64,000 nucleotides of DNA from Anaerolineae bacterium (GTDB lineage Bacteria; Chloroflexota; Anaerolineae; JAKLPW01). Location: positions 3,137 to 67,136 of the forward strand of contig JAKLPW010000138.1 in the NCBI GenBank assembly GCA_022013675.1. The letters are read 5' to 3'. Position 1 is the stretch's first letter. Every line of letters starts with the position of its first letter. The notes under the pieces were generated by a model. The model had not been told where the DNA came from, ran no database searches, and saw only the letters and a list, made by a program, of their open reading frames with translations. Of this stretch, positions 22,032 through 55,269 are shown piece by piece. The position numbers and the translations under genes are program-made.

Positions 22032-22032
22032 G

Positions 22033-31735: not shown

Positions 31736-33700
31736 TCACTCCACTATCTCATAGACGAATAATCGATCCACCAGGTATGCCTTCTGCGTACACCCTGCGA
31801 TCAACTCCGTCGTCGGTACGAGGGGCGACGGGGGCACATCCCGCAACAGCCGATCACCGTAGTAGACAGGCTCATCGTCAGTGGTCAATACAAGACGTAA
31901 CCCACTGCTGTCATCCAGTTGGCGCTTCATCTCGGGCCACCCATCTCCGTACCACGCGCTGCCAACCTGCGCGTAGCGCACGTCCCAACTTCGCAAGAGA
32001 TCCAGGCTGTCTGCGTCAGGGAATCCGCGTAACACATCGTCTGCCTCGCGGAACGCCTTGGGCAAGAAGGTACCGTAGCCATAGGCTATCGCCTTTCCGT
32101 GCGTTATACTGCGGTAGAGCTGCTCCCCATACCAGCTTCGATCCAGAGGGTACTGGATCACTGCGCCGTCCTCAGCCTCCTCCGAAAGCCAGCGATCCAC
32201 CGGCTGCGGCTTTACAGTAGAATAGCCAAAAGCATAGGGCAAAACGGCAAAATCGAACAGGATCAGCGATATGGCCAACAGATAGATGTAGCTGCGCCGT
32301 GACTTGGACCCGATACCCCCTCTCTGCGCAGACAGTCCCATCCAACGGGAGATCCCCATGCCCGCCATCACCGCTACCACGCACGAGGTCACCAGGCCAA
32401 AGCGCGCCCAGACGCGCATGCTATTGGCGAAGGGAAGAAAGAGATAGACCAACAACCCTGGCATGGGTACCGGAACAGCTCCAGGCCGTACCATAGCATA
32501 GTAGGACACCTTGTTCAGCGCCAGCTTGCCGGTCAGCACATACATTCCCTTGTGGAACAGATCTGCCAACGCCCCAGGAAGCGCAATGTAGACCGGGTCA
32601 GGGCCCAGGTGGAGCGTTGTTCCCAGGGCCAGCACCAGGAAGACCCCCCCTAACCAGAGATAGGCGCGCTTCACTGGCCCAGACTCCTCAAGTCGCCATC
32701 CCATTACCGCCAGCAACAGAGGCACGAGACCCCAATAAAGCAGGTTCTCGTGCACATTCTGGGGCCAACGAGCCATGATCGAGCTTCCCCAGAACGGATG
32801 CATGGCACTGGGGAGCACGAAGTCCAGCAGGCCGGCCGACCACTGATCCACATAGTTCAGCGAAAGCGAAGCGTGAGCCGTCTCACCCTGAGCTGAGAGC
32901 TGCAGCAAAGGCCAGGCTGCCGGGACTACCAGTAGACCAGCGACCACCAAGAAGATGGCTCCTCCTAGAAACCTTCGGCGGTTCAGCCAGCCTCGTTGCC
33001 AGGGCTTCGCGCGTACCAGAACGTAAATCGCCACCACCAGTCCATACATGTAGGCGTAGTACCAGGACGAGAGAGCGCCCAAAGCGTAGAACAGACCGGC
33101 CCAGACTGCATCGCTACGCCGGCAGTCCCGCACCCAACGTTCAGTGGCCCACAGAAGCAAAGGTAGCCACTGAGTGCCCATGAGGGGGAGATGACCGGCC
33201 CCCAGATGCGCCATGCGGTAGGGAGTAAACGCAAAGATGGCTCCACTGAGCATCCCCGCTCCCTTGCTTCCCGTCAGGTCACGGACCAGCAGATACATGC
33301 CGTATCCCGAGAGCACGAAGGAGATCAAGACAGCGATGTTGTAGGCCACAACCTCCCCCAAAAGGGCCGTCACCGGAAGCACCGGGAGGATGTTCGACAG
33401 AGTTGTCTCCGACAGTGCTACGTGATATCCAAAGGGGTAGAAAACCTGCGGGATAAAAAAAGGCGATGTCCCCTCTTCTAGCAGCGCATGTTCAAACCAG
33501 TATACTTTGTAAAGGTACTCGAAATTATCCCCTGGTGGCCCCATGATGGCCGTGCTCAGATGGAGTACCAGCGGGTAGGTCATGATCAGACTCAGTATTG
33601 TAAAGATAAACAGAGGATGGGTCAAAACCAACCAGCCACGATGGCATAGAGAGCCATGTTCTGCACTCAGCATTTCAGTCTGCATCCCGCGCTCTGTCAT
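31736..33700 (-). CDS. Large polytopic membrane protein, GT-C-like candidate; paralog of 4660-6648
   Basis: 654 aa, alignable by eye with 4660-6648 along the whole length. ATGA overlap with the upstream stop (33697-33700). Confidence 0.55.
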   Translation of the reverse strand: MTERGMQTEMLSAEHGSLCHRGWLVLTHPLFIFTILSLIMTYPLVLHLSTAIMGPPGDNFEYLYKVYWFEHALLEEGTSPFFIPQVFYPFGYHVALSETTLSNILPVLPVTALLGEVVAYNIAVLISFVLSGYGMYLLVRDLTGSKGAGMLSGAIFAFTPYRMAHLGAGHLPLMGTQWLPLLLWATERWVRDCRRSDAVWAGLFYALGALSSWYYAYMYGLVVAIYVLVRAKPWQRGWLNRRRFLGGAIFLVVAGLLVVPAAWPLLQLSAQGETAHASLSLNYVDQWSAGLLDFVLPSAMHPFWGSSIMARWPQNVHENLLYWGLVPLLLAVMGWRLEESGPVKRAYLWLGGVFLVLALGTTLHLGPDPVYIALPGALADLFHKGMYVLTGKLALNKVSYYAMVRPGAVPVPMPGLLVYLFLPFANSMRVWARFGLVTSCVVAVMAGMGISRWMGLSAQRGGIGSKSRRSYIYLLAISLILFDFAVLPYAFGYSTVKPQPVDRWLSEEAEDGAVIQYPLDRSWYGEQLYRSITHGKAIAYGYGTFLPKAFREADDVLRGFPDADSLDLLRSWDVRYAQVGSAWYGDGWPEMKRQLDDSSGLRLVLTTDDEPVYYGDRLLRDVPPSPLVPTTELIAGCTQKAYLVDRLFVYEIVE

Positions 33701-35196
33701 CCCTTCGCCTTTTCCGCCCGGTACATCACCAGATCAACGCTACCGGTGAAGTGCACCTCTCCCACGCACACCAGGTCATGACGAGCATTCAGAGCCTTTT
33801 CCATTCCTCGATTGAGCGTGTGGCTGAAGACCAACCAGACGTTCTCGTAGCCTGAAGCAGCCTCCGCCGCCAGAGCAGTCAACTCACCTTCATCGGTCAG
33901 GCCCCGCCACACCAGCCGCATCTCCGTGTCCCGCTGATAGTAATGACGCAAGGGTATCACGGCATCCGCATCCACAACGAAGATCAGATCGTTGGCTCCT
34001 ACGGAAACCTCCAGGTAATGCGCCAGGCCACGCCAGTCCTCCTTCTGTTGCTTCTGATACATGGTCTGGAGCGAACGCGCCGAAACAAGGAAAATCGCTC
34101 CAGCGAGGATTACCCTCCACGCGAGAGGCCTAACCCTCGACACCCCCCGGCCCATCAGAATGACGAACGGTGGCAGGAACGGGAGTAAGTAACGGAGCAC
34201 GTACATATTGCGTACCTGCGAAATGACGAAGATTGTGCCCAGAGGCACTAGCAGGTAGAGCAGACAGAAGATGACCTCCTCGTCAAAGGGAAAACGCAAC
34301 ACGACCCCCTCCCGACTGATCTTCAAAGAGGCAATGCCCATCAGGATGGCGATAGCTGCGGCCAGAGTTCCTCCCCAGATCCATGCTCGTCCACCCCCGA
34401 AGGTAGTGCCGAAGCTGAAGGCTACGAAAGTGTCCAGCAGGTCGCGCAGCCCCGTGCTGCCGTAGCGAACGTCAATCCAGGCCCACCATCCCTGTTGCTG
34501 CTGGTTGACCAACCCCCAGAGCAACGGCAGCGCCAGGACCCCGGCAACGGCTTCCACGCCCAGCCAACTCCAGAACCTTCTCTTGCTGATCTGCCGCGTA
34601 CCCAGCAAGTAGAGAACGTAAACACCCTGAGACAGGATGACGAATGCGGCGAAGGTATGCGTATACAATCCCGCTACTGCGCACAGGATGTACGCGATCC
34701 AGTCGCCTATCCTTCCCCTGCGAATTCCTCTTAGGAAGAAGTAGGACGAGAAAAGCGAGAACGCCGTCACAAGGCCATACATACGCACTTCCTGGGAATA
34801 CCAGATGTGCAAAGGGGAAAGGGCCAGCAGCGCCGCGCTCCAAAGCCCAACCCGCTTATCGAATAGCTCCCACGCCAACAGATAGACACCCGCGACGCTG
34901 CAAGCCCCAATCAACACCGAAAGTAGGCGGATAGTAAGATCCTCTCGCCCCAGCCAGAGCCAGAAGTGCAGGAGCAGGTGATACAGATTTCGATCCGTGA
35001 AGGGAGGGCCCTCCAAGCGGAAAGGGGAGAAATCCCACAGGGGTCTCGCCGCAAACGCCACGCTATATGCCTCGTCGAACCAGAAGCTCTCGGCGGTCAG
35101 ACGATAGAGTCGCAGGAACAGCGCGCCTCCTGCGATGAGAGCAGGCACGAGGGGGAAAACCTCAAGAGAAGACGCCCTCTTTTCGCTTTTCGCCAT
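33697..35196 (-). CDS. GT39-like GT-C membrane glycosyltransferase
   Basis: SFWFDEAYSVAF...LYHLLLHFWLWLG...IRLLSVLIGACSVAGVYLLAWELF...LSPLHIWYSQEVRMYGL. Confidence 0.7.
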   Translation of the reverse strand: MAKSEKRASSLEVFPLVPALIAGGALFLRLYRLTAESFWFDEAYSVAFAARPLWDFSPFRLEGPPFTDRNLYHLLLHFWLWLGREDLTIRLLSVLIGACSVAGVYLLAWELFDKRVGLWSAALLALSPLHIWYSQEVRMYGLVTAFSLFSSYFFLRGIRRGRIGDWIAYILCAVAGLYTHTFAAFVILSQGVYVLYLLGTRQISKRRFWSWLGVEAVAGVLALPLLWGLVNQQQQGWWAWIDVRYGSTGLRDLLDTFVAFSFGTTFGGGRAWIWGGTLAAAIAILMGIASLKISREGVVLRFPFDEEVIFCLLYLLVPLGTIFVISQVRNMYVLRYLLPFLPPFVILMGRGVSRVRPLAWRVILAGAIFLVSARSLQTMYQKQQKEDWRGLAHYLEVSVGANDLIFVVDADAVIPLRHYYQRDTEMRLVWRGLTDEGELTALAAEAASGYENVWLVFSHTLNRGMEKALNARHDLVCVGEVHFTGSVDLVMYRAEKAKG

Positions 35197-35278: not shown

Positions 35279-35989
35279 TCACTTCCCGATGCGACTGTCC
35301 AGGCGAAACCGCCAGACTTTCCATAGAGCCTCGCGCACAATGCTACCCGACATCTTGGACTCCCCTACTCGCCGGTCCACGAAGACGATAGGTACCTCCA
35401 CCAAACGGAAGCCTCGCCGGAAAGCCCTGTATTTCATCTCGATCTGAAAAGCATAACCATTGGATGTGACTGCATCCAGGTCCACTGCCTCCAGCACATC
35501 TCGCCGCCAGCAATTGAAGCCACCCGTCAGGTCCCATATCGGCATGCCCAGGATGACCCTGGCGTAGAGACTCCCTCCGCGGCTGATCAACTGGCGGACA
35601 AGTCCCCAGTTCTCCGTCCCTCCACCCGAAACGTAGCGGGACCCCACGACCACATCAGTTGCCCGGGCCGCTTCGAGTAGGCTGGGGATGTAAGCGGGAT
35701 CGTGCGAGAAATCGGCATCCATCTCAAAGACGTACTGCGCACCTTGCTGCAAGGCATACTTGAATCCTGTGATGTAGGCGCTGCCCAATCCCATTTTACC
35801 TTGGCGATGGATAACGTGCACTCGCTCATCGCGAACAGAGAGAGCATCGGCGATCTCCCCCGTGCCATCAGGCGAGTTATCATCCACGATGGCAACGTGC
35901 ACGTCCACCGGTTGACTCAGGACGGCCTCCGCTATCTTCTCCATGTTCTCGCACTCATTGTAGGTTGGAATAACTACCATGACCTGCAT
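35279..35989 (-). CDS. Polyprenol-phosphate mannose synthase-like GT2 (Ppm1/DPM1 type)
   Basis: MQVMVVIPTYNECENM...VAIVDDNSPDGTGEIA...GKMGLGSAYITGF...FEMDADFSHDP. ATG at 35989 is preferred to the track start at 36037. Confidence 0.85.
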   Translation of the reverse strand: MQVMVVIPTYNECENMEKIAEAVLSQPVDVHVAIVDDNSPDGTGEIADALSVRDERVHVIHRQGKMGLGSAYITGFKYALQQGAQYVFEMDADFSHDPAYIPSLLEAARATDVVVGSRYVSGGGTENWGLVRQLISRGGSLYARVILGMPIWDLTGGFNCWRRDVLEAVDLDAVTSNGYAFQIEMKYRAFRRGFRLVEVPIVFVDRRVGESKMSGSIVREALWKVWRFRLDSRIGK

Positions 35990-36040
35990 GGGCAACCTCT
36001 GCTCCCCTCTACCACCGAAGCTAATACTCATGAGCAAGAC

Positions 36041-37534
36041 TCATCGCTCGATCTGATACAGCACTACCCTCCCAACGCCACGATACTCCCACGCACCCAG
36101 ACGCGAGTAGAGGGAGTCCAACTCCTGCTCCAGGAGTCCCTCCGGATCGGTATAGTGACCCGGCTCATGAATCAGCCACAGGCGACGATGCCCTGCCAGA
36201 TGCTCCGCCAACACCTCTTCCAGACCCTCTTCCGGCAATGGCACCGGGGCATCCCCATAGACGTCCACTACTCCCTGAGCATAGTAATCGAAGGGCTTGA
36301 CATTCCAGCCCGGACTGAACATGACCACATCGCCCGATTCAGACCGTTCGACGACGTAGGCTGCAGTACTGCGCCAGTCAGGATTCTGCGCCTCTCGCAC
36401 GTTAATGAACACTCCCACGGCCTGGGTCAACGCCAGCAGAACCACAAGTCCCCAGCGCACCCAGGGCCATCGCACCACCGTTGCGCCTCGCGCCACCAAG
36501 AGCAGAAACGCCGGTAAGAAAGGAAGTAGATAACGCATAGCATACATCGGCTTCCATTGCGACAGTACCCACGCCGTCCCTAAAGGCACTACCAGATATG
36601 CGACGACGAAAACAAGTGCTTGAGTATTTGAGAGGCGTGCCTGCGATGACTCGCGCTTTCTCACCCCCAGGGACGCTAAAGCCCCACAGGCCCCAAAGAG
36701 GAGATAGGCCGCACGCCGGGCCAGGGACGGGTACCAATGCCGCGTCATGCCGATGATGTAGGCCATGGCTGTGTGCACAAGGACATCAATCGGTGGCGCA
36801 CCCAGGGAACGAGCCACCCACCCGCCCCCTCCCTGGCTCACCTGCCGCACAAGGACCGGCAACCAGGGAGCGAAACACAACGACACCGCAGCCTGGGCTG
36901 GGATCCACCCCCCCAGAGTTCGGCGCCACTGGGAATCCGTCAAGCAAAGATACGCCATGAAGAGATTCTGAAACAGAACGATGAAAAAGGCATAGTAGTG
37001 CGTATACAGGCTCAGAGAAGTAGTGAGCACATATCCGACCCAGGCCGGCCAGCCCTTGCCCCTCAACAACTCCAACATACAATAGGCCGAACACGTGGTC
37101 AGCAATGCGAGTAGCGCGTACATGCGCGTCTCTTGCGAGTACCACAAGTGAAAAGGAGAGAGAGCCAGTAACAGCGCGCCCGCCAACCCGGTCGCTCGAT
37201 CAAAAAGCGAACGGCCAATACCATACACGAGAGGCACCGTCAGCGTCCCGGCCAGGGCAGAAAGGGCCCTGATGGCCCCCTCACTGCTCCCGAGAGCCAG
37301 CCAGTAGTGCAGTAATGAGTAGTAGAACGGAGGATGGATGTCCACCGCAGTCCAGCCGACCATCTCGCGCAGCTCCATCCGAGCCAGAAAGAGGCTGGTC
37401 GCTTCGTCCAGCCAGAGGCTCTCGCCCCCTAGATGATAGAAGCGTACCAATGCCGCCATAGCGGTAATCAGAGCCACCGCGAGCATCCAGATATCCTCTC
37501 GTGACCGATCGTGCAACTTCAGGTACGTCACCAA
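36041..37534 (-). CDS. GT39-like GT-C membrane glycosyltransferase
   Basis: SLWLDEATSLFL...HPPFYYSLLHYWLALG...IRALSALAGTLTVPLVYGIGRSLF...LSPFHLWYSQETRMYAL. Confidence 0.7.
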   Translation of the reverse strand: MVTYLKLHDRSREDIWMLAVALITAMAALVRFYHLGGESLWLDEATSLFLARMELREMVGWTAVDIHPPFYYSLLHYWLALGSSEGAIRALSALAGTLTVPLVYGIGRSLFDRATGLAGALLLALSPFHLWYSQETRMYALLALLTTCSAYCMLELLRGKGWPAWVGYVLTTSLSLYTHYYAFFIVLFQNLFMAYLCLTDSQWRRTLGGWIPAQAAVSLCFAPWLPVLVRQVSQGGGGWVARSLGAPPIDVLVHTAMAYIIGMTRHWYPSLARRAAYLLFGACGALASLGVRKRESSQARLSNTQALVFVVAYLVVPLGTAWVLSQWKPMYAMRYLLPFLPAFLLLVARGATVVRWPWVRWGLVVLLALTQAVGVFINVREAQNPDWRSTAAYVVERSESGDVVMFSPGWNVKPFDYYAQGVVDVYGDAPVPLPEEGLEEVLAEHLAGHRRLWLIHEPGHYTDPEGLLEQELDSLYSRLGAWEYRGVGRVVLYQIER

Positions 37535-37751: not shown

Positions 37752-38759
37752 TCAAGAATGTTGTACCGGTATGTTCCCCTGCGCGGTGAAGAGCGTCGGT
37801 TTCCACCAAGCCCACTCCACGCATTTGCTGCACGAAGGCACATTCTCAAGATCGTTGCGCAAATGCTTGCGGCGCAACTCCGCCATCTGAGGCCCGCGCC
37901 ACGCTTTCATTACCCCATTGGCCACATTCCCTAACGGATAGCTGGCATTGAAATCCCGATCGCACGACATCAGAGTGCCATCCCAATAGATGTGCACGTG
38001 GTACCATAGATTGGGGCAGTGGAAACGCGGTGGGAGAGCAATCTCCTTCTCCGGTCGCAGTCCGCTGATGTCCTCTACCTGGTCGCCCCACGAATCGAAA
38101 GCCTTGACATTGACCCGATCCACGCCGGGCATCCTCCAGATGCGCCCGAATTCCTCGATCTCGTCCAGAGTGGGCTGAATCTCAATGATCTGGACCTTGA
38201 CCTCCGGGCGTGGGTAGCCACCAGCATGTCGTAGTTCAATGAACCTGAGAATGTTCGCCCTGGTCTCTTCAAAATCCGCACTGCGCCGGATCTTCTCGTA
38301 GGTTTCGGGTCTGGTGCCATCCAGACAGAGGTAGATAGTGCCTAATCCGGCCTCCAGGATTTCCTGGCTGATCTCCGGCGTGAGAAGCGTAGCGTTGGTG
38401 GATATCTCCGCGTGCAGCCCCTTCTCGCGACAGTAGGCGATCATCTCCACGATTCGAGGATGGAGCAAGGGCTCACCCCAAATGTGAAGCGTCGTCGCCT
38501 TGACATGGGGAGCCATCTCATCCACGACCTGCCGGAAGAGATCGTAATCTATGAAACCCTTCTTCCGAGTGACCTGTCCCAGGCCGGTTGGGCACATGAT
38601 GCAGCGGAGATTGCAGATATTGGTGGATTCGAGATACATCCGATCAGGGTACGTCCAGGGCCGCGTGTTGCCCAGGGTGTAATTGGCCCATTTGGCTGCC
38701 ATGGTAGCGCGACGTTTATAACGACGAATCCGATTGTCCACTCTGGTTGCTATGCCCAC
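37752..38759 (-). CDS. Radical SAM enzyme with SPASM/twitch-like C-terminal domain
   Basis: LESTNICNLRCIMCPTG (CxxxCxxC); CPNLWYHVHIYWDGTLMSC (Cx12Gx4C); CSKC near the C-terminus. Overlaps the upstream gene by 10 nt. Confidence 0.8.
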   Translation of the reverse strand: MGIATRVDNRIRRYKRRATMAAKWANYTLGNTRPWTYPDRMYLESTNICNLRCIMCPTGLGQVTRKKGFIDYDLFRQVVDEMAPHVKATTLHIWGEPLLHPRIVEMIAYCREKGLHAEISTNATLLTPEISQEILEAGLGTIYLCLDGTRPETYEKIRRSADFEETRANILRFIELRHAGGYPRPEVKVQIIEIQPTLDEIEEFGRIWRMPGVDRVNVKAFDSWGDQVEDISGLRPEKEIALPPRFHCPNLWYHVHIYWDGTLMSCDRDFNASYPLGNVANGVMKAWRGPQMAELRRKHLRNDLENVPSCSKCVEWAWWKPTLFTAQGNIPVQHS

Positions 38760-40231
38760 TCTCTGGTCCTTTCCTTCCGAAAACTTCCCAACCCACCCAG
38801 TAAACGACTGTTAAGAATCGCACACCCAGCCACTCGAACCAGCCGCAGGCGGGAAACCTGCCATAGAGCTGTTCCCCATAGTTTGCCAAAGGCCCTGACA
38901 TATTTACGTTTGCGCTTTCCCTCAGCGAACGTCCGTTTGGCTTTCGCGGCCACGCGACTCAGAGCCTGATCGGACACCTCCGAGACATTCAGGAAAGGCT
39001 CAATCTCCTCGGCATAGTTGTTGTAGTAGTAGGCGCGGCTGAAGTCCTGGTTGAACTGGATCTCGGGACGCTTCGCCACCAACTCGCTCCACAAACGGGT
39101 GCCCGGGAACGGCGTCGTTAGGCTGAACATGGCATCATCTAGATCCAACTCGGCAGCAAAATCAATGGTCTGCCGCATCGTGGCCTCAGTGTCGCCAGGA
39201 AGTCCCAGCATGAAGTATCCCTTGGACCGAATGCCCGACTGTGCCGTCCAGGTCACGGCCTGGCGCACTTGGTCCTTGGTGATACGTTTCCCAATGGCCG
39301 CCAGGATCTCGTCGTTGCCCGACTCAATTCCATAATGTATCTGGCGACAGCCGGAGCGGTACATGAGATCGAGAACCTCCGGGTCCACGCGATCCACGCG
39401 GCCCAGACATTGCCACCGAATGATCAGGCTCTCGTCAATAATGCGCTGCGTAATAGCTTTCAGACGCTTGCGATTAATAGTGAACAGATCATCGATGAAG
39501 TAGATGTTGGCAATGTCATATTGACTGATGATCTGACGCAGTTCGGCAATGATGTTATCAGTGCTTCGCTGGCGATACGTACGCCCGACTATGCCCTTGA
39601 AGCAATAACTGCAATTGTAGGGACAGCCTCGACTGGAGAGCACCGTAATCATACGCTCACCATCCGGAGCATAGAGCGGATAGGCTTTCAGATCAAACAG
39701 ATGTCGCGCCGGCGAAGGCAGTCCGTCCAGGTCACGGATCAGAGGGCGATCAGGATTGCACTGCACAACACCATCCTGCATATAGCAAAGTCCCTGGATA
39801 GCAGCCAGTGTCCCATCGGACGGGCGCGGCCCTTCCGACTCCAGCGCACGTACCAGCTCAATGATCGTCGCCTCCCCTTCACCATAGACCAGGTAATCCA
39901 CAAACGGCTCCTGGGTCACCCGCTCAGGAAAAACGGTGGCATGGGGTCCACCAATGACCAGAGGACAACCAACGCGCTCCTTGACAAACTCCGCCGTCTC
40001 AGCCACTGCGTGGTACGTATTGGTCATGGCAGTGATGCCCACCAACTGGGGATCGAACTCGCCTAACTCTTCTATCTGTTCCGATAGAGGCCGGTCCGGA
40101 TAAAGTCCAAAATCGTGAACGCGGACTTCGTGTCCTTCGCGTTCCAGCACCGCGGCCAGGTAAGCCAATCCCAACGGCGGATAGCTATTCACCATCTTAT
40201 TCCATTTGGGAGAAATGAGCGATACTCTCAT
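38750..40231 (-). CDS. B12-binding-domain (class B) radical SAM enzyme
   Basis: MRVSLISPKW...PPLGLAYLAAVLEREGHEVRVHDF (B12-binding-like domain); VLSSRGCPYNCSYCFKG. ATG at 40231; the track extension to 40543 overlaps the SGNH C-terminal ORF. Confidence 0.8.
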   Translation of the reverse strand: MRVSLISPKWNKMVNSYPPLGLAYLAAVLEREGHEVRVHDFGLYPDRPLSEQIEELGEFDPQLVGITAMTNTYHAVAETAEFVKERVGCPLVIGGPHATVFPERVTQEPFVDYLVYGEGEATIIELVRALESEGPRPSDGTLAAIQGLCYMQDGVVQCNPDRPLIRDLDGLPSPARHLFDLKAYPLYAPDGERMITVLSSRGCPYNCSYCFKGIVGRTYRQRSTDNIIAELRQIISQYDIANIYFIDDLFTINRKRLKAITQRIIDESLIIRWQCLGRVDRVDPEVLDLMYRSGCRQIHYGIESGNDEILAAIGKRITKDQVRQAVTWTAQSGIRSKGYFMLGLPGDTEATMRQTIDFAAELDLDDAMFSLTTPFPGTRLWSELVAKRPEIQFNQDFSRAYYYNNYAEEIEPFLNVSEVSDQALSRVAAKAKRTFAEGKRKRKYVRAFGKLWGTALWQVSRLRLVRVAGCAILNSRLLGGLGSFRKERTREWA

Positions 40232-40250: not shown

Positions 40251-40793
40251 TCATGATCCGGACGTAGCTGGCTCACGTGCTTCCAGCGCGTCCACCAGAG
40301 AGCGAGCAACGAGTTCATGCCCGCTATAGTTCCAATGCCCCCAGTGCAGTTCCTTTCCGTGAGTCTCGTAGTCCTTCCTGAAGATACTCTGCAGCCCGAT
40401 AAATCCAACGCCCAGCTCCTCCGAGTACGACCGAAGATCGTCCTCAAAGAAGCATGGATCAAATGTCGAATCGATCTCCCGATACCTCTCCTCCACCATT
40501 GGGAGATGCGCGTCGTTATCAGATACGACAAGCACGAACTCAATGCCCTCGCTCTTGCAGATACCGGCCATTTCCCTGAGTAGAATCTTATTCAGCTCAT
40601 AGCTCCTGGAGTATGACTCATCGGGATCGGACGTACACAGGCTAAGAAAACCGGTAATCGAGGCAGGCTGGGGACTCTCCCCACCTTCTTCCCCCTCGTC
40701 TATACGTCTGTTCAGTCTATAGACATTGTATCGGTTAGAGATGAGCGAAACCAATGCTGAGCGCTGCTTTATGTAGTTTATCCTCGATCTCAT
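40251..40793 (-). CDS. SGNH hydrolase, C-terminal half (frameshifted/split gene)
   Basis: INYIKQRSALVSLISNRY parallels FLREHSAFYSFLVRRY of the intact paralog 28310-29506. The C-terminal HWNYSGHELVARSL resembles block V. The start overlaps the stop of 40790-41407 as ATGA. Confidence 0.6.
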   Translation of the reverse strand: MRSRINYIKQRSALVSLISNRYNVYRLNRRIDEGEEGGESPQPASITGFLSLCTSDPDESYSRSYELNKILLREMAGICKSEGIEFVLVVSDNDAHLPMVEERYREIDSTFDPCFFEDDLRSYSEELGVGFIGLQSIFRKDYETHGKELHWGHWNYSGHELVARSLVDALEAREPATSGS

Positions 40794-41407
40794 TTCATAT
40801 CATACTCAGATGTGTTCGAGAAACTAGTGTCAAGCACTAGTTGCCCTTCATCAGAAACACTGAAGAACGGGCGAGATTTATTGGGGGCTGTCTCCCTGCT
40901 CACTTCTGCAATGTCGTTCCCCGGGAAGAAGAACAGTATCACCATGTCGGGCTTAAACCTAAGAATGTCCCGTCTTAGGACGATCAGCTCTTCTGATTGC
41001 GTGAAACCGGACCTGCCAAAAGTCATCAACTCAAAAGCGTTCGCAGAGGTTCTGTTGAGTTCCTTTTCGGCAAGGGCCAAGAACGTTCTTTCTAACTCTA
41101 CTTGAAACGCCTCCACGAAGCTATCGCCCAGGACAGCTACCCTGTAGGTGTTCTCAGGCTTCTCTAATGCCCATTCATCGTCTCGCCATCCATAGTTGTT
41201 CATTCTTCCTGTGATGGGATGGTCATTCTCTCTGTTGTACCAGTATTCGCAATTGGGAGTGAATCGATATCCGATTTCCTCATCTGGCTCAGAGCAGCTC
41301 AGGCAAGCACCAAAGAGGTGAGTACGTCTTAGCAACACTTCCAGGGCAAGCAGCGTAAGCACGATACTTACCACACATATCCACAGGTTAACTAATCTCT
41401 CCCGCAT
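40790..41407 (-). CDS. SGNH hydrolase, N-terminal half (frameshifted/split gene)
   Basis: N-terminal TM. VAVLGDSFVEAF (block I), FGRSGFTQ (II), FFFPGNDIAE (III). Ends ...TSEYDMK* in an a-rich tract. Visibly lower GC than its neighbours. Confidence 0.6.
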   Translation of the reverse strand: MRERLVNLWICVVSIVLTLLALEVLLRRTHLFGACLSCSEPDEEIGYRFTPNCEYWYNRENDHPITGRMNNYGWRDDEWALEKPENTYRVAVLGDSFVEAFQVELERTFLALAEKELNRTSANAFELMTFGRSGFTQSEELIVLRRDILRFKPDMVILFFFPGNDIAEVSRETAPNKSRPFFSVSDEGQLVLDTSFSNTSEYDMK

Positions 41408-41900: not shown

Positions 41901-42353
41901 CTACGCAGTCCTCGCCGGACGATAGCAGCAATGGGCGGACAGGAGAATCTGCCGTATGTACTCGTGGCTGATGCGATCAACGATGCGACGTTTCCGAGCT
42001 TGCTCAGCCAATCGGTGTAGAGTCCAGTTGCTGAAATTAAGACCCAGGTCCCGAGGCTTGGTCTCAGCCAGCCGCACGATCTCAAGTTTCTGGTTCTCCG
42101 TGAAGCGAGGCTTGGCTCCTCCAGACCGATTGCTGACCAGCCCTCTGCAACCTCTCTCGTTGAAACGATGAATCCACTTGCGCAGGTTGGCCGGGTGCGC
42201 GTCGGTTATCTCCCCAATCTCCGGGACCCGATAACCCTCACTGGAGAGGAAGATCACTCCGGCCCGATGCCTCAACTCGGCTTCCTCGCCTTCCAGCCAT
42301 CCTCTTAGCTGTTTCTCTTCGCCCTCGGTCAGCTCGCGGACGTACAGAACCAT
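41901..42353 (-). mobile_element. IS630-family transposase N-terminal (HTH) fragment; DDE domain missing
   Basis: MVLYVRELTEGEEKQLRGWLE...RAGVIFLSSEGYRVPEIGEI...LRKWIHRFNERGCRGL...KPRFTENQKLEIVRLAE...FSNWTLHRLAE...ISHEYIRQIL, then a premature stop. ATG at 42353 is preceded by aggagggg. No catalytic domain is readable downstream. Confidence 0.65.
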
Positions 42354-42823
42354 TGTAACCCCTCCTATCTGACCAGACTCAAACATGGCTCAAGGCGGGG
42401 TCACTCTCTCAGCTCACGCCCCGCTCTGACCATCATACCCGGGTATTCGCATGGCACGACAATAGCCACACTTGGCCACATTATAACGGCCAAACATGAA
42501 AAAACGATGAAAACCGGGTACGGCGGGGGTTACAAATTGTTCATATACACTCCTCTTCAAACCGCCTGTGTCAATATTCCTTCAAACACTCACGTTTGAA
42601 TATCAGACACGTGACGACACTATCTGATTTCAACTTACAAGTATACACCATTTCTACCTGTATGAGAAATCCTTGAATCGAAGAAAACTGGTGAGGACTT
42701 CTGAGGTCGGGCGCGCGCAGGGAATGTCTACCCGCTCCACAGGGATCGCCAGATCCCGACTTCGCTCGCCAAGACCGACTCCCCGCACGGGGATTTGGCA
42801 ATCTCCTCTGAACTAGATGGGCA

Positions 42824-45226
42824 CTAGTCGCGGCGCGGTGGCAAAGTAGTGAAATCTATGGCGAGGGCCTCCGCCGCTTCCAACTTCTTCGGCAAAGTGA
42901 AGAGGAACGCGCTTCCCTTGCCTTCTTCACCCTCCGCCCAGATCATCCCTTGATGGTATTCGACGATATGCTTACAGATAGTCAACCCCAGGCCTGTACC
43001 ACGGTATGGGCGCGTAGTGGTGCTATCCACCTGGTAGAAACGGTCGAAGATTTTTTCACGCTCATCGGGGGGAATGCCGATACCGGTGTCAGACACGGAG
43101 ACTCTTATCTGCTCCCCCAAATCTACAGCCCCCACGGTAACAGAGCCGCCCTTGGGAGTGAACTTGATAGCATTATGTGCCAGGTTGGTGATAACCTGAG
43201 TAATACGCATGCGATCCGCCTTGATCAATGGGAAGTCCGAAGGCACCTCGGTCATCAACCTAACTCCCTTCTCATCGGCCATAGGAGTCAGATTATCCAT
43301 GACACACCCAGCCACCTCCGCAATAGAAACCGCCTCCAGGCGCAGCTTGACCTGACCAGACTCCAGACGGGAGAACTCCAGCAAGTCCTGGATGAGGCTC
43401 TGCAGATGGTCGGTCTGGGTGCGGACAGTATTCAGGAAATCCCGTTGTGTCTCGCTGATCTCTCCAGTTTTCCCCATTAGGATGATATCCACAAACCCCT
43501 TGATGGAATGTAGAGGGGTTTTTAGTTCATGGGACACGACGGAAAGGAAATTCGACTTCATACGTTCCAGTTCCTTTTGTCCCGTGATGTCTCGAAGTAC
43601 CGCCACCACCCCTTGCACCACGCCTTCATCGCCGCCAATAGTGGTAGCCAGAGCCTGATAGATCTTCTCCGCGCCTTCGCGGCCATCGTCCAGGGATACC
43701 TCCTCAACCAGGAGAGCTTCCTTCTCCTTTAGAGTCTCCTCCAGCAGCTTCAGCAATGTCTCATTGGGGATAACTTCCGTTAGCGGAGTTCCGTGAGCCA
43801 CACTACCTCTGACGGCAAAGATACGAGCAGCGACTGGGTTTAGCATGGTCAGACACAATTGCGGATCCGTGACGATTACGGCATCGCCAATACCCCATAG
43901 AATAGCCTCCAACTCGCTGCTCTTCTCGCGCACGCTCTGGTACAGGCGCGCTGTCTCCTGTTTCTCCTGGTTCAGCCTTTCGTAGAGACGCGAGTTCGTG
44001 ACGGCGATGGCAGCCTGATCGGCAAATGCACCCAGCATGCTCACGTCTTCCCTGGTGAAAGCACTGACGCTAGGGCTGGTTGCACTAAGCGCACCGATGG
44101 AAATGCCATCAGAGATAAGTGGTACACTTATCATGGAGGCGATGGGCCACTCGCCCACGGTTACAAAGCGCTCGTCGAGACTAACATCGGCGATGAAGGC
44201 CTCCCGCCCGTGCGTCACAACCCATCCGGCAATCCCCTCATTACGCTTGAAGCGGGTACCCCAAAGATCAGCGTCCAGTATCCCAGAAGCGGCCCTGATC
44301 ACGATCTCTCCGCTTCGCGCATCCAGAAGAGCAACGGAACACCGAGCGCCTCGCAACACCCCAGAAGCATTGGCCACGATCAGCCGCAGGACATCTCCCA
44401 GTTCCAGGGCTGAGTTAACGGCCTTCACGCCCTCCTGTAGTGAACGTAGCTCCAACACCCTCTGTCCCATCGCTCGGGCTGTGCGCTCAAACCCTGGGAA
44501 CTGCTGATCAACAGCACCTTGTCCTCTGTCAGACTCATAGGCAGGGCCACGACGGTGTTCCATCAGCCACCCAAGTCCCATATTCCCTATCATAATACCA
44601 AGCAGACCCAGATAGCGCATCAGGAAAGCTTGATCGGCAAGAAAGAAAAGGCTGTTCAAGCCGATATACAGCGTGGCCACGTAAAGGAGTCCCGACAGGA
44701 AGGGCACGTAGATGATGGGCGAAAAGTAGGGATAGTAGAACGCTGCCTTAAAGGCCAGCACGCCATAGAGCAAATAGCCCTCGCTGGCCAGCCCGCCCGT
44801 ATGAAGGACGAGATAGCTTGCATAGGCATAGTCAGCCCCATAGGAGAGAATGATGGATGCTCGCTTGATGATGTTCCAAAGGTCCCCATCCCCCGCTACT
44901 CCGGACGAGCCAACTCCGCCATAGAGAAAGAAATCTCCCCCTGGCCCAGCGGATCCCGGGTCGGACAGATCCTCCGGTCTTGCGGGGCGACTGGACCAAA
45001 ACACGACTGTGAAGAATAGATTCGTGAGCGCGTAGAGTAGCGAGCCTAGGATCACACCACTGGGAAAATGGCGGCCATTGAACACCCAGATGACGAACAA
45101 CCCCAATAGCCACAATGTCCACTTTAGCGGATTCCCGAGGCGATGTTCTTTACGGTAGAGCCAGGAAAGACGATACTCCTCGCTCGCCAGGGCAATGTCT
45201 TTTTCTCCTGTTATCATCAAATCCAT
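42824..45226 (-). CDS. Sensor histidine kinase (polytopic N-terminus, GAF, PAS, HisKA, HATPase_c)
   Basis: FLSVVSHELKTPLHSIKGF (H box), NLAHNAIKFTPKGG (N), VSDTGIGIP (G1), GTGLGLTICK (G2). About 230 aa of N-terminal TM segments. Confidence 0.9.
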   Translation of the reverse strand: MDLMITGEKDIALASEEYRLSWLYRKEHRLGNPLKWTLWLLGLFVIWVFNGRHFPSGVILGSLLYALTNLFFTVVFWSSRPARPEDLSDPGSAGPGGDFFLYGGVGSSGVAGDGDLWNIIKRASIILSYGADYAYASYLVLHTGGLASEGYLLYGVLAFKAAFYYPYFSPIIYVPFLSGLLYVATLYIGLNSLFFLADQAFLMRYLGLLGIMIGNMGLGWLMEHRRGPAYESDRGQGAVDQQFPGFERTARAMGQRVLELRSLQEGVKAVNSALELGDVLRLIVANASGVLRGARCSVALLDARSGEIVIRAASGILDADLWGTRFKRNEGIAGWVVTHGREAFIADVSLDERFVTVGEWPIASMISVPLISDGISIGALSATSPSVSAFTREDVSMLGAFADQAAIAVTNSRLYERLNQEKQETARLYQSVREKSSELEAILWGIGDAVIVTDPQLCLTMLNPVAARIFAVRGSVAHGTPLTEVIPNETLLKLLEETLKEKEALLVEEVSLDDGREGAEKIYQALATTIGGDEGVVQGVVAVLRDITGQKELERMKSNFLSVVSHELKTPLHSIKGFVDIILMGKTGEISETQRDFLNTVRTQTDHLQSLIQDLLEFSRLESGQVKLRLEAVSIAEVAGCVMDNLTPMADEKGVRLMTEVPSDFPLIKADRMRITQVITNLAHNAIKFTPKGGSVTVGAVDLGEQIRVSVSDTGIGIPPDEREKIFDRFYQVDSTTTRPYRGTGLGLTICKHIVEYHQGMIWAEGEEGKGSAFLFTLPKKLEAAEALAIDFTTLPPRRD

Positions 45227-45381
45227 CTCTTCATATCTGCCGCGTTGCAGTGCTCTCGACTTGATTCATCCCGTGCTGGTGAGTTATGGGAGCAAGTTAC
45301 GGCTCTCTGCTACCCAAATGATACCCACGAGATCTGGTCCTGGTGCCACAGGAATGTTATCTGCGCGAACGAAACCGGCCC

Positions 45382-46449
45382 CTACTCCAGAGAGAAAAGC
45401 TGGCAATACCAGAGTCCGCTGTTCGTGCCTGCATAAAGCAACCAGGGATAGCTGGGATCAACGGCCAGAGTTCGTACGGTGGCGTTGCCTAGTCCTCTCT
45501 TCAGAGGAATCCAGTCCTGGCCTCCATCGTAGCTGCGGTACACTCCCTCATATTCGATGCCGACGTACAATGTTTGGTCATCAGTAGGACTGACCGCAAC
45601 AGCATACATCCTGTGCCCAGTCCACTCCTCGCCGCGCACCTGCCAGGTAACACCGCCATCGTCGGTCCCATATAATCCACTATCGGTCCCAGCGTAGACA
45701 ATGCTCCCCTGATGGCCCGACGCCAGAGTAAAGACTTGTGCATCGGGGAGGGACCAGATCCAGGAGGCTCCCCCGTCCATTGTAAGTAACAGCCCTCGCC
45801 CTGATGTGCCCAGATATATCCTGTCAGGGTCATCGAAGGATATCGCCATGCAGAGGATTTCCGTGCTGCCCCTCCAGCCGCCCCGCGCCTCCCACGTCGC
45901 GCCGCCGTCAATGCTGCGATAGAACTGATTCTCTGTGGCAGCATAGACCCACGAAGGATGACCGGAGGGGACGCCAAGTACGTGTATACGGCGATCGGTC
46001 AATCCAGCCAGAACCACCCAGGACTCACCGCCACTCTCACTTTTGTAGAGGCTCGGCCGACCAGGAGTGACGCTGCGCAAGGCTGTATATATCACCAAGG
46101 GATCGCTCGGATCCACGCTGAAGGCGCGGACCTGGACCTGGCCCAGGCTTCCTGTGGGAAGTCCGTCGCTGACTGATACCCATGCTCGCTCTGGCCCACT
46201 GCTGCGATAGATGCCATGGGTGCTAAGGACGGCATAGTATATCGCCCCCTCCCACCCCCTGGCGACATCCAGGCTTCTTACCTCACCCCACCCCTCGAAG
46301 AAGGGCTCACGGGTCCATACAAGGATGCCGTCCTGATGAGCAATTGCAGGCGTGAGGAACAGAGGAAACAGAAAGCAGGCCAGGGCCAGCAAAACCTGTC
46401 TCACCTTGTGAGAAGCCACGATCTGGCTTGTAGAAACTCCCAACCTCAT
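45382..46449 (-). CDS. Secreted BNR/Asp-box beta-propeller protein (Ycf48/sialidase-like fold)
   Basis: Signal peptide. Repeated SxDxGxTW-type boxes: SESGGESW, SIDGGATW, TMDGGASW, TDDGGVTW, SYDGGQDW. Confidence 0.75.
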   Translation of the reverse strand: MRLGVSTSQIVASHKVRQVLLALACFLFPLFLTPAIAHQDGILVWTREPFFEGWGEVRSLDVARGWEGAIYYAVLSTHGIYRSSGPERAWVSVSDGLPTGSLGQVQVRAFSVDPSDPLVIYTALRSVTPGRPSLYKSESGGESWVVLAGLTDRRIHVLGVPSGHPSWVYAATENQFYRSIDGGATWEARGGWRGSTEILCMAISFDDPDRIYLGTSGRGLLLTMDGGASWIWSLPDAQVFTLASGHQGSIVYAGTDSGLYGTDDGGVTWQVRGEEWTGHRMYAVAVSPTDDQTLYVGIEYEGVYRSYDGGQDWIPLKRGLGNATVRTLAVDPSYPWLLYAGTNSGLWYCQLFSLE

Positions 46450-46494
46450 GATAGCGCCACCTCCTCAACCTGGCCCCCATCGGGGAGGCCGTGT

Positions 46495-47943
46495 TCAAGT
46501 CCGTATTGGCGGTTTCGGAGTGTTGGTCGGTGACTTCGGAGGCTTGCTCGTCGGCGGTGGCGAAGGGGTATTGGTCGGCAAGGGCGTGTTGGTACTTGTC
46601 GGAATAGGAGTGCGCGTGGCCGTTGGCCGGGGAGTATATGTCGGCGTAGCCGGTATGGCCGTGCTGGTCGGAGTGACAGTCGGAGTCAGAGCGGCTGCGA
46701 TCGATGTAATCCTCACGGCCGCCTCGTCACCCTCGCAGACACCCAAGGAAAGAATGGCTCGATACCCCTGCAATGCGGCTTCCAGCTCGCCGGCATCCTC
46801 ACGTGTGCGCGCCATGTTCAGATGCGCCTGGCAAAGCAACTGCGCGGCGCGTCCGCCCGCATAGTCAGGACGCGCGACATAGAGAACGCTCAGGGCTGCG
46901 ATTGATCTCTCCCAGTACCCCTGATCGAACAGGTCGCATCCCTCAAGATAGGTTTCGGCCAGTTCGCGTTCGGCGGCGGGGCGTCCATCGCTGGGATTCA
47001 ACACGGCGGCCTCGTCGAAACGAGCGATCGCCTGCGTCACCTGATCCAGGTTGGCACCAGAGGTATCTACCAACTCCAGCCCATAGCCATAATAGCTATC
47101 GAAGAGATAGCGCTGCACTTCTTGAGCGCGATAGGTATCATCCAGAGCCTTCAGTTGCTCAAATCGTTCGATAGCCGATGCCCACTTCTGCTGCTCATAG
47201 AAGGACAGGGCATCGGAGTAAAGGAACTCCAATTGGCTCTGTCTCTCGACGAAGACTATCTGTTCATCAACATCCCGATAGTTGGCATCCACCTCCAGGA
47301 TAGCCTTGAAGTACTGAAGAGCAGAATCCCACTGGCGATCACTCATGTATCTCACAGCCTCTTCATAGTAGGCTTTGGCTAAACCTACCTGAGCCTCGCG
47401 GTCGCCAGGGACAATAGTGAGCAATTCCTGGAAAACGTTGATCGCGCCTCGATAGTTGCCCGCTACGAGATATGCCTGCCCCAGGTTACGGAGACGGTCC
47501 TCCCGTTGCGTGTTGCCCAGGCCAGGGAGCATCCCCTGATCATAAAGCACTGCAAAAGCGACAGCCGCCAGAAAGATCAGTGCAACCAGTAACCCTGGCC
47601 AGGTACGCCGCCTCATGGGAGGTGGGGGCATGAACTCTACCCCGGATTCTTCCCGTTCTTCTACCTTCCCTACTGGGCGGCCAGGTGCCGGTTCCTTACG
47701 CTCGGGCTGAATCGCTTCCAGTTGAATGAAGATGTTGAGCTCATCCAGCAAAGCGTCAATGCCTCGCCGCTCGCTCTGTATGGCTTTGAGACACACGAAG
47801 CAGTCGCGAGCCTCCCGCCACTGCCGGCGGCGATAGTGAGCCATTCCCCGGCTATAGAGAAGATTGGCATCCTCCGCACTCTTCCCTTCATCGTCAGGAA
47901 GTTGGTCATCCCCAGCGTTGCCGCTTCTCTTCTCGCTTTCCAT
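46495..47943 (-). CDS. TPR-repeat membrane protein with C-terminal Pro/Thr-rich tail
   Basis: One TM (WPGLLVALIFLAAVAFAVLY). Multiple TPR-like A/Y/L-patterned helices. Last ~66 aa: TPTVTPTSTAIPATPTYTPRPTATRTPIPTSTNTPLPTNTPSPPPTSKPPKSPTNTPKPPIRT. Confidence 0.7.
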   Translation of the reverse strand: MESEKRSGNAGDDQLPDDEGKSAEDANLLYSRGMAHYRRRQWREARDCFVCLKAIQSERRGIDALLDELNIFIQLEAIQPERKEPAPGRPVGKVEEREESGVEFMPPPPMRRRTWPGLLVALIFLAAVAFAVLYDQGMLPGLGNTQREDRLRNLGQAYLVAGNYRGAINVFQELLTIVPGDREAQVGLAKAYYEEAVRYMSDRQWDSALQYFKAILEVDANYRDVDEQIVFVERQSQLEFLYSDALSFYEQQKWASAIERFEQLKALDDTYRAQEVQRYLFDSYYGYGLELVDTSGANLDQVTQAIARFDEAAVLNPSDGRPAAERELAETYLEGCDLFDQGYWERSIAALSVLYVARPDYAGGRAAQLLCQAHLNMARTREDAGELEAALQGYRAILSLGVCEGDEAAVRITSIAAALTPTVTPTSTAIPATPTYTPRPTATRTPIPTSTNTPLPTNTPSPPPTSKPPKSPTNTPKPPIRT

Positions 47944-48492
47944 GAGTACTCCTCAAACTGCAAGCTCTAAGACTAATGAGTCATGATCTGGCCTACCAGA
48001 GAACATCTAGTTCCCAGAGCATAGGCAGATTCTAGCGCACTTTGTACTTTTTGGCAAGGGATAATCGGAGTCAGTTCCGCACCATGTTGGCGCAGTCTGT
48101 ATCCGCCAGCGTAGAGGCAGGTTTCATTGGGGCAGGAACTACTCTGCGCCAGCAGAGCCAGATCCCTCCAGTGCCCTTCGAGTAGAGAAAGCCCCAAACC
48201 TGCCCCTGCAACTTGATGACCGTGGGCCCAGGAACCTACATTCAGCGAGAGGGCCACTCTGACGAGCTTCCAGCCACCAGCGAACAACAGTCAGCGTTCC
48301 GGTTGCCCCGGAACGCCGACCGCTGATAGCCGACAGCCAGCCCTCGATGAGAGACTGCCGCAAGCTTACTACTCTAGCAACGTCTCCACTCCCACCAGGC
48401 CCGACTGCGCACTCCAAAGACGATATGTGGAAGGTTTTGCCCCAAAACACTCAACATCACTCTGAATACCCGTCAGCGAAGCAGGCACTCGA

Positions 48493-53551: not shown

Positions 53552-53599
53552 GGCTCTCTCCTTCACCTCATCGCCTCATTCTTGCGAAATACGCTCCGG

Positions 53600-55253: not shown

Positions 55254-55269
55254 TGGTCCTGGGCTCGTT

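Follow-up and report, generated by a model that had tools for sequence, protein, structure and literature searches.

A translationally coupled pair of B12-domain and twitch-type radical SAM enzymes in an Anaerolineae glycosyltransferase cluster

Introduction

What might two radical S-adenosylmethionine (SAM) enzymes, encoded by overlapping genes in the middle of a glycosyltransferase (GT) cluster, act on? The question is raised by a 64,000-nucleotide (nt) stretch of contig JAKLPW010000138.1 from an Anaerolineae bacterium (assembly GCA_022013675.1, positions 3,137 to 67,136; the whole of this stretch is referred to here as the window), in which a gene for a radical SAM enzyme with a B12-binding domain (38750-40231) overlaps with one for a second radical SAM enzyme (37752-38759). 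An earlier note, made by reading the DNA alone, had pointed to this pair, to its glycosylation context, which holds in the window, and to the lack of an obvious peptide substrate. The analysis reported here shows that the pair is an uncharacterized, lineage-specific two-enzyme module that no curated family model covers. We tentatively favor a sugar as the substrate, and weigh this below against lipid, peptide and cofactor alternatives.

Results

The gene pair and its overlap

The genes of the window lie for the most part on the minus strand, including both members of the pair. The first gene (38750-40231, -) starts with an ATG at 40231 and encodes a class-B-type, i.e. B12-binding-domain, radical SAM enzyme of 493 amino acids (aa); the second (37752-38759, -) starts with a GTG at 38759 and encodes a twitch-type radical SAM enzyme of 335 aa. 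The stop codon of the B12 gene is the TAG at 38752-38750, so that the two genes share 10 nt (38750-38759, -), and the purine-rich sequence GGAAAGGA stands 5' of the GTG. Identical overlaps are present in independent gene calls on metagenomic contigs (related loci L001, L002, L003, L086, L087 and L088), and in our own scan 24 of 38 related Chloroflexota loci had an in-frame ATG or GTG positioned for exactly this 10-nt overlap with the upstream gene. Because the independent gene calls and the scan agree, the overlap, which the earlier note had also described, is no quirk of open reading frame (ORF) calling. We read it as translational coupling and, counting the conserved coupling as observed, describe the two genes as a translationally coupled radical SAM pair. 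An alternative start of the twitch gene at the ATG at 38705 is less likely, given the purine-rich stretch upstream of the GTG and given that homologs are mostly 333-340 aa long with the same overlap. An 809-aa fusion of both enzymes in L080 proved to be only apparent, the two genes lying in different frames.

The B12-domain enzyme

The first enzyme has an N-terminal Rossmann-type B12-binding domain (Pfam PF02310, residues 15-126, 79.6 bits with a cut-off of 32.1), followed on its C-terminal side by a radical SAM domain (PF04055, 87.9 bits, cut-off 29.5) with the motif CPYNCSYC; PF04055 and the CX3CX2C signature of the superfamily are found in both enzymes of the pair. The motif cysteines of the B12-domain enzyme are invariant in 55 homologs. 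Its AlphaFold2 model, with a predicted local distance difference test (pLDDT) score of 86.3, was compared with the Protein Data Bank (PDB) using Foldseek; the best match was AprD4 (E = 8e-24, template modeling (TM) scores 0.69/0.74), then TsrM, MgmA, OxsB and CysS, and a sequence search of the PDB likewise placed AprD4 first (1.2e-32). The class B assignment is thus one of domain content and of a fold like those of AprD4, TsrM and OxsB: a B12-binding domain in a sequence, or in an apo AlphaFold model, is a predicted cobalamin site and does not establish cobalamin use or methyl transfer. AprD4 itself has a B12-binding domain, yet works without cobalamin.

The subfamily check that the earlier note had called for placed neither enzyme in a characterized family. 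No NCBIfam model reaches its cut-off for the pair, for the three other radical SAM proteins of the window or for the radical SAM paralogs of L034. The B12-domain enzyme scores highest with BchE (TIGR02026, 207.7 bits, cut-off 481.35) and HpnJ (TIGR03471, 179.4, cut-off 577.6), followed by PhpK (161.6, cut-off 600), a ladderane-lipid model (161, cut-off 360) and ApyD (159, cut-off 750). With 132.2 bits against a cut-off of 500 it is not a member of the AprD4 family of diol dehydratases (NF033070) either. BchE membership is likewise contradicted by the score, and no bacteriochlorophyll or tetrapyrrole genes are among the annotated genes of the window; for HpnJ, neither the window nor the related loci showed any hpn or shc genes.

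The twitch-type enzyme

The second enzyme has a radical SAM domain (66.3 bits, cut-off 29.5) with the motif CNLRCIMC and a C-terminal Pfam SPASM match (45.2 bits, cut-off 21.5). In alignments of 16 and of 58 homologs C49, C53 and C56 are invariant, and in the C-terminal domain only C248, C266, C310 and C313 are so, in the pattern C-x12-G-x4-C ... C-x2-C; C110 is the sole additional near-invariant cysteine. Both motifs given in the earlier note, CNLRCIMC and Cx12Gx4C (C248-x12-G-x4-C266), were therefore read correctly. A full SPASM domain, with two auxiliary clusters, has 7-8 cysteines (Cx9-15Gx4C ... Cx2Cx5Cx3C ... C), a pattern that is not present here. A twitch domain by definition binds one auxiliary cluster, and that of BtrN has four Cys ligands; enzymes of the twitch class typically act on small molecules and sugars, not on peptides (PMC9012708). 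Because there are only four invariant C-terminal cysteines, the second enzyme is, as judged by its sequence, a truncated-SPASM, twitch-type enzyme resembling BtrN, with one predicted, fully Cys-ligated auxiliary [4Fe-4S] cluster. Of the earlier label "SPASM/twitch-type" the second half thus stands and the Pfam match is real, whereas a full SPASM domain is not supported.

The AlphaFold2 model (pLDDT 86.7) agrees with this assignment, in that BtrN is the top Foldseek match (4.3e-13, TM 0.74 on the target), with DesII and BlsE next; SuiB, MoaA, SkfB and CteB follow below these three, and GDGT-MAS and EpeE are also among the matches. The PDB sequence search gave BlsE as best (4.8e-10), again with GDGT-MAS among the matches. 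The best NCBIfam model, a tungsten-cofactor maturase (104 bits, cut-off 380), covers the N-terminal core only, and the NirJ, AhbC and AhbD models, also near the head of the list, are below their cut-offs. An anaerobic sulfatase-maturating enzyme is not indicated: one auxiliary cluster is possible, no sulfatase is among the annotated genes of the window, and the model for this family is absent from the 25 best NCBIfam matches.

Distribution and conserved gene order

Each protein of the pair has hundreds of homologs at 57-91% identity, many of which share contigs and which, where a source is named, come from Anaerolineae or Chloroflexota metagenome-assembled genomes (MAGs). A scan of GTDB, with one genome per species, gave at least 547 relatives. 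Each of the 36 closest loci is in a separate MAG of the Anaerolineae, Caldilineales or Ardenticatenales; the pair occurs as a single copy and almost exclusively in Anaerolineae. When 1.84 billion representatives were searched with a profile, one scored 547 bits, with the next-best full-length sequence at 313 and a 190-aa fragment at 334; below these came a broad family, with about 3,400 representatives at E ≤ 1e-30. Because of the gap between 547 and 313 bits to the next full-length representative, the orthologous group is a distinct clade. Remoter pairs or single genes occur in Planctomycetota, Binatia and Bathyarchaeota, and relatives at 30-37% identity in Aminicenantes and other phyla.

Genomic contexts were compared by BLAST of the ORFs of each locus against the window proteins and with hidden Markov models built from the PMT_2, YfhO, GT2 and GT87 proteins of the window. 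A neighbor-joining tree of the twitch proteins has two sister clades. Clade A comprises the window, L001-L010, L045 and L086-L088, and in all of these a PMT_2 GT-C gene directly follows the twitch gene; further downstream are more PMT_2, small GT2 and YfhO-like genes and sometimes one for an EamA/SMR-type small membrane protein. The flanks vary, the upstream side consisting of Big-like, TPR, BNR, GAF-PAS kinase and helix-turn-helix (HTH) genes, of GT87, or of pyruvate-phosphate dikinase. The order of pair then PMT_2, in several loci with GT2 and a second PMT_2, persists across these differing flanks. The 30 species-level loci of clade B, which are considered in the Discussion, include arrays of 4-6 B12-domain radical SAM paralogs (L034 6558-19764; also L023, L027, L029, L033, L036 and L043).

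In the window, the gene directly downstream of the pair (36041-37534, -) encodes a PMT_2 GT-C glycosyltransferase of GT39/GT83-like type (Pfam PMT_2, 53.7 bits). Its orthologs (42-46% identity) hold the same position in L001-L010 and L045, as do PMT_2 genes in L086-L088. Next come a small GT2 (35279-36037, -; Glycos_transf_2, 114.8 bits), which resembles polyprenyl-phosphate sugar synthases of the DPM1/ArnC/PpgS type (best NCBIfam models PpgS and AglJ, both sub-cut-off), and the second PMT_2 GT-C glycosyltransferase of the module (33697-35196, -; 54.6 bits), with orthologs in clade A loci. The order pair, PMT_2, GT2 is repeated in L003-L005 and L086.

Other radical SAM genes of the cluster

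The cluster as a whole contains three small GT2s resembling polyprenyl-phosphate sugar synthases, seven PMT_2, three YfhO-like and one GT87 proteins, together with a polysaccharide deacetylase, a carbamoyltransferase, SGNH hydrolases, an NAD epimerase/dehydratase and a hexapeptide acyltransferase. Three further radical SAM genes are present, of the types stated in the earlier note. That at 11991-13343 (-) is of the B12-domain type (Radical_SAM 61 bits, B12-binding 31 bits) and weakly AprD4-like (NF033070, 112.4 bits, cut-off 500). That at 7652-8818 (-), between two GT2 genes, matches in Pfam only Radical_SAM (45.3 bits) and has a SPASM/twitch-like C terminus with the pattern Cx12Gx4C...CxCx3C. 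The last (1-960, -), of the B12-domain type, is cut by the window edge and has sub-cut-off NCBIfam matches to BchE (120 bits) and ApyD (119 bits). An ortholog of 1-960 directly follows the twitch gene in L011, L012 and L018 (55-62% identity). Because in L011 and L012 the pair is directly followed by orthologs of both 1-960 (55%) and 7652-8818 (60%), the radical SAM genes of the window are one set.

The distal block runs in the order radical SAM gene (11991-13343), epimerase, acyltransferase, GT2, radical SAM gene (7652-8818), GT2, YfhO, CBM96/S9 esterase and radical SAM gene (1-960). The NAD-dependent sugar epimerase/dehydratase (11014-12153, -; Pfam Epimerase, 115.2 bits), whose true start is probably downstream of 12153, was hidden beneath an over-long ORF in another frame for the hexapeptide-repeat acyltransferase (10328-11491, -; Hexapep, 47.9 bits; WbbJ/WcaF-like, sub-cut-off). 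The latter ORF is over-extended at its 5' end, its domain occupying the last ~125 aa; the counterparts in L089-L091 are about 230 aa long, and the position of the epimerase is also filled in these loci. L089 and L091 share the synteny of the block from the epimerase through to the last B12-type radical SAM gene, and in L090 and L091 the epimerase, itself followed by the hexapeptide acyltransferase, has a radical SAM gene directly before it. L090 has of the block only radical SAM gene, epimerase and hexapeptide acyltransferase and, separately, GT2, radical SAM gene and GT2, the GT2 flanks of the 7652-8818 counterpart thus being kept throughout L089-L091. In L089 and L091 genes for a methyltransferase and a Wzx-like flippase come after the 1-960 counterpart; a NUDIX gene is near the block in L091 and an NTP-transferase gene in L090. 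The contigs of L089, L090 and L091 (76,206, 221,927 and 119,452 bp) apparently also carry orthologs of the pair. Every radical SAM gene of the window is therefore embedded among sugar-handling genes in a conserved order, and the suggestion that the recurrence of the enzyme types is part of the design is borne out by the synteny.

Sugar-type neighbors extend to the wider family. Twitch homologs at 30-37% identity, in several phyla, often stand beside a GT2 that is 40-44% identical to 35279-36037 and beside hexapeptide acyltransferases, and natural fusions of twitch homologs to a hexapeptide acyltransferase (P0320) and to a branch-1 histidine phosphatase (P0370) occur. In L056 a B12/twitch pair (34%/34% identity) is part of a glycan cluster with YfhO, GT4, asparagine synthase, GDSL hydrolase, epimerase and LPG-synthase-type membrane proteins. 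The Planctomycetota pair of L038, beside a methyltransferase and four amidohydrolases, looks more natural-product-like.

Other features of the window and related loci

Upstream of the pair is a gene (41901-42386, -) for an HTH_32 protein (55.9 bits), corresponding to the HTH part of an IS630-type transposase without its catalytic domain (IS630 model, 59.7 bits, cut-off 100). The gene is conserved upstream and, in L001, L002 and L087, its end shares 4 nt with the beginning of the B12 gene. The protein is probably a regulator, and the overlap in relatives suggests a domesticated one. Between the HTH gene and the pair an SGNH/GDSL hydrolase gene (40251-41407, -) is split into two ORFs (40790-41407 and 40251-40793, overlapping by 4 nt), which align to residues 68-182 and 333-389, in the N- and C-terminal halves, of an intact paralog at 28310-29506. 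The SGNH assignment by Pfam is weak (E = 0.0018, below cut-off), and the split could represent a frameshift, a pseudogene or a sequencing error; there is no SGNH gene at this position in L001, L002, L087 and L088. The pair had been described as sitting between an SGNH hydrolase and a GT39-like gene: on the downstream side this is so, the PMT_2 gene being there, whereas the upstream neighbor is a split and weakly matched gene that most relatives lack.

A conserved block upstream of the pair (41901-53566, -) encodes a response regulator, a giant secreted protein of Big-like type with 1438 aa, TPR and BNR/sortilin-like proteins, a GAF-PAS histidine kinase and the HTH protein; its portion from the Big-like protein to the HTH protein is syntenic in L001, L002, L045 and L087, and its secreted proteins may be targets of glycosylation. 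No Rfam family, and hence no cobalamin or SAM riboswitch, matched at the gathering threshold in the whole window, and a scan for promoters and terminators did no better than with shuffled sequence.

Elsewhere in the cluster, genes in a row (22033-23653, -, and 20763-22049, -) encode a GT2 resembling PpgS, a polysaccharide deacetylase that scores 248 bits with TIGR03006 (cut-off 276) and also matches DUF3473, and a GT87 GT-C enzyme, an arrangement resembling the ArnC/ArnD or PpgS logic of editing a lipid-linked sugar. The 537-aa protein of 15220-16833 (-) has no Pfam match and scores 61.9 bits (cut-off 200) with the LA_3751/LA_3752 putative glycosyltransferase family; L003-L005 have a 35% identical homolog. 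A membrane glycosyltransferase not described before is a possible identity for this protein. A divergent GT2 and a Bac_transf initiating sugar-phosphate transferase at 55216-57707 (+) suggest that the GT-C cluster borders on a second glycan pathway, one linked to polyprenyl diphosphate.

Two small ORFs are found in clade B. One of 68 aa (MSSFSNPHYMYLF...), without a family match, is conserved at 59-97% identity in 8 of the 30 loci; the other, of about 100 aa, has an N terminus that we take to recall AF2212/DUF104-type antitoxins, although Pfam gave no match. L034 holds two such small ORFs (18082-18288 and 18300-18617). Neither is a universal substrate of the pair, both being absent from the window and from most loci. 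A supposed upstream B12 paralog in the clade B arrays was found to be RtcB.

Discussion

The GT2/PMT_2 operon, the sugar genes that neighbor each of the five radical SAM genes and, in the wider family, fusions and neighbors of sugar type lead us to favor a carbohydrate: most likely, all five radical SAM enzymes of the cluster together tailor one. That the pair itself performs radical tailoring of a nucleotide- or polyprenyl-phosphate-linked sugar we would put at somewhat less than an even chance. That the nearest solved relatives of both enzymes act on carbohydrates adds weak evidence from sequence and models, and several observations weigh on the other side. The structural matches are modest (TM 0.56-0.74, 15-24% identity) at a time when few class B structures exist, and SuiB, SkfB and CteB, which act on ribosomally made peptides with post-translational modifications (RiPPs), come within two orders of magnitude in the Foldseek E-value of the twitch enzyme. 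We found no paper on the pair or on radical SAM arrays in Anaerolineae, and no biochemical data. Above all, clade B has no PMT_2 gene within 10 kb in any of its 30 loci, a GT2 gene within 10 kb in only two and any weak GT match in only three. There the companions of the pair are 3-5 more radical SAM paralogs of the B12-domain type, a relative of the radical SAM gene at 7652-8818 and a class I methyltransferase, flanked by housekeeping genes (SufR-like, MoaA, IscA-like, RtcB) and by genes for LVIVD-repeat, transaldolase, holA and SecD proteins, an arrangement at least as typical of a lipid, cofactor or other small-molecule pathway. Co-occurrence of the pair with GT-C genes in other genomes, which the earlier note had proposed to look for, is thus invariable in clade A and lacking within 10 kb in clade B, so that the lack of co-occurrence which the note had named as refuting its reading is seen in one of the two clades. 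Because PMT_2 neighbors are found only in clade A, the linkage may stem from a single ancestral rearrangement, though one kept since across many species and flanks. The reading of a lipid substrate draws on clade B: the pair and its paralogs would methylate, cyclize or cross-link the polyprenyl carrier or the hydrocarbon chain of a membrane lipid or glycolipid, as GrsA/B, Gmm, HpnP/HpnR, Tes and the ladderane enzymes do, and would be linked to GT-C genes since GT-C enzymes use lipid-linked donors or decorate the modified lipid. Arrays of 4-6 B12-domain genes and a methyltransferase that stand alone fit this well, lipid-tail radical SAM enzymes being usually encoded without pathway neighbors. 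The B12-domain enzyme is partly similar to the ladderane-lipid model, HpnJ and HpnR, GDGT-MAS is matched by the twitch enzyme in both sequence and fold, and among lipid-modifying radical SAM enzymes are some that depend on B12 (GrsA/B, Gmm, HpnP/HpnR) and others that have auxiliary metal centers (PMC13459092). No fatty acid, isoprenoid or glycerol-ether biosynthesis genes are present in any inspected locus, however, the scores with lipid families are all far below cut-off, sugar enzymes rank above GDGT-MAS among the structural matches, and the GT2, epimerase or acyltransferase genes beside each radical SAM gene of the window, like the fusions in the wider family, point away from lipids. We regard a lipid substrate as unlikely, though a serious contender.

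SPASM enzymes usually act in peptide or protein maturation, and the Pfam SPASM match of the second enzyme raises the question of whether the pair could mature a ribosomal peptide or protein, either a large secreted neighbor or an unrecognized precursor encoded elsewhere, with C-methylation by the B12-domain enzyme and cross-linking, epimerization or oxidation by its partner as possible reactions. In keeping with this, a clade B ortholog scores best with the RiPP enzyme ApyD (201 bits), the folds matched by the twitch enzyme include SuiB, SkfB, CteB and EpeE and those matched by the B12-domain enzyme include MgmA, a protein glutamine methylase, and genes for large secreted proteins (Big-like, CBM96/S9, LVIVD) are near the pair in the window and in relatives; the 68-aa ORF of clade B might be added. 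The ApyD score is far below the cut-off of 750, however, and the 68-aa ORF is evenly conserved over its length rather than divided into leader and core. A RiPP maturase would be recognized by an adjacent precursor gene and a RiPP recognition element (RRE) or PqqD-like domain; the gaps flanking the pair contain no credible, and no conserved, small precursor ORF, as the earlier note had found, Pfam detects no PqqD/RRE domain in either enzyme, and no leader peptidase or export ABC transporter is nearby. Because of these absences, the single auxiliary cluster and a class-wide, single-copy conservation at 55-70% identity such as RiPP clusters do not usually show, we consider peptide or protein maturation by the pair to be improbable. 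Less probable again by some way is that the first enzyme is a BchE-type or other cofactor enzyme (for a tetrapyrrole, the lower ligand of a cobamide or maturation of a metallocofactor) and its partner a cofactor maturase, the glycosylation neighbors being incidental. BchE is the top NCBIfam match of the B12-domain enzyme, and JGI labels many homologs accordingly; tungsten-cofactor maturase and NirJ/AhbC/AhbD models lead the list for the twitch enzyme; and MoaA, SufR-like and IscA-like genes are upstream of several clade B arrays. All of these scores are less than half of the curated cut-offs, however, with the twitch matches spanning the N-terminal core only. The window has no co-located tetrapyrrole, cobamide or molybdopterin-enzyme genes and no Rfam element, and the PMT_2 operon structure is kept across different flanks.

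Returning to the sugar, the domain content, cysteine pattern, conserved coupling, gene order and taxonomic range of the pair are observed; its substrate class, reaction order and chemistry we infer. The substrate may be a nucleotide sugar, or a sugar already loaded on polyprenyl phosphate by the DPM1/ArnC-like GT2 (35279-36037). The twitch enzyme would abstract a hydrogen atom from the sugar, pass an electron to its auxiliary cluster and so bring about oxidation, epimerization or decarboxylation, as with BtrN, DesII and BlsE, and the B12-domain enzyme would methylate or rearrange the same sugar, like GenK, AprD4 or HpnJ. The modified lipid-linked sugar could then be flipped over the membrane, for the downstream PMT_2 GT-C enzymes to transfer onto an envelope glycan or a secreted protein. 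A more far-reaching version is that the five radical SAM enzymes build an unprecedented sugar (C-methylated, branched, deoxygenated or ring-contracted) on polyprenyl phosphate, that a set of about twelve GT-C enzymes uses it to make an envelope or sheath glycan specific to Anaerolineae, and that the coupled B12/twitch pair forms an obligate two-enzyme complex; taken as a whole this is speculative and we think it rather unlikely.

Sediments, digesters and activated sludge are rich in Anaerolineae, and few of the lineage-specific enzyme sets of this class are as well conserved as the pair, at 55-70% identity over hundreds of genomes. If a lipid-linked sugar is what it tailors, radical SAM sugar chemistry would extend from antibiotic pathways to bulk envelope glycans and GT-C enzymes would gain a new class of donor; if it modifies lipids instead, unrecognized biomarker lipids from Anaerolineae are possible. 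The two contexts, GT-C operon and radical-SAM-only array, provide a clear experimental handle either way.

Comparison with characterized enzymes helps to define what is familiar in the pair and what is not. With AprD4 (the radical SAM 1,2-diol dehydratase of apramycin biosynthesis), TsrM, MgmA, OxsB and CysS, the B12-domain enzyme shares an N-terminal Rossmann B12-binding domain followed by a radical SAM barrel, whereas identity is 23-24% and a C-terminal helical extension of ~75 residues (helices in 421-485) sets it apart. The twitch enzyme has the radical SAM core and truncated SPASM domain of BtrN (the butirosin 2-deoxy-scyllo-inosamine dehydrogenase), SpeY, BlsE and DesII, and is BtrN-like in having four conserved cysteines able to ligate one auxiliary cluster and in being small, without a peptide-recognition domain. 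Unlike BtrN, to which it is ~15% identical, it is ~90 residues longer (335 versus 246 in the matched chain), has an N-terminal helix of ~30 residues, is obligately paired with a B12-domain enzyme and has no aminoglycoside genes nearby.

At the pathway level, the closest parallel in logic is that of HpnI, HpnK and HpnJ, which convert hopanoid glucosamine to the cyclitol ether, and of Cds: once a GT2 has loaded the sugar on a lipid, it is trimmed by a deacetylase and remodeled by a radical SAM enzyme (PMC13459092). Mutants deleted for hpnJ or cds lose the ring-contracted head group, the chemistry of ring contraction being proposed rather than shown, and these systems are thus a genetic precedent for radical SAM remodeling of a lipid-bound sugar (PMC13459092). 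In the window, a GT2 and a polysaccharide deacetylase are likewise encoded (22033-23653), and HpnJ, the second-best model for the B12-domain enzyme, is the best for two of the L034 paralogs, with scores of 179-200 that are far below 577.6. Unlike in the hpn system, no squalene-hopene cyclase or other hpn genes were seen, and the acceptor would here be polyprenyl phosphate, with GT-C transfer to follow.

The polyprenyl-phosphate sugar of the ArnC/ArnD/ArnE-F/ArnT and mycobacterial PpgS/Rv3779 pathways is likewise the product of a small GT2; it is edited on its lipid carrier and transferred outside the membrane by a PMT_2-family GT-C enzyme. ArnE/F-type proteins flip polyprenyl-phosphate sugar donors, and a small EamA/SMR-type protein is encoded in L001, L002 and L087. 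Arn and PpgS pathways edit hydrolytically, by a deformylase or deacetylase, and not by radical SAM chemistry, and the window has weak model matches to them. Should the far-reaching version given above prove right, no earlier case would be known in which radical SAM chemistry supplies GT-C glycosyltransferases with lipid-linked donors.

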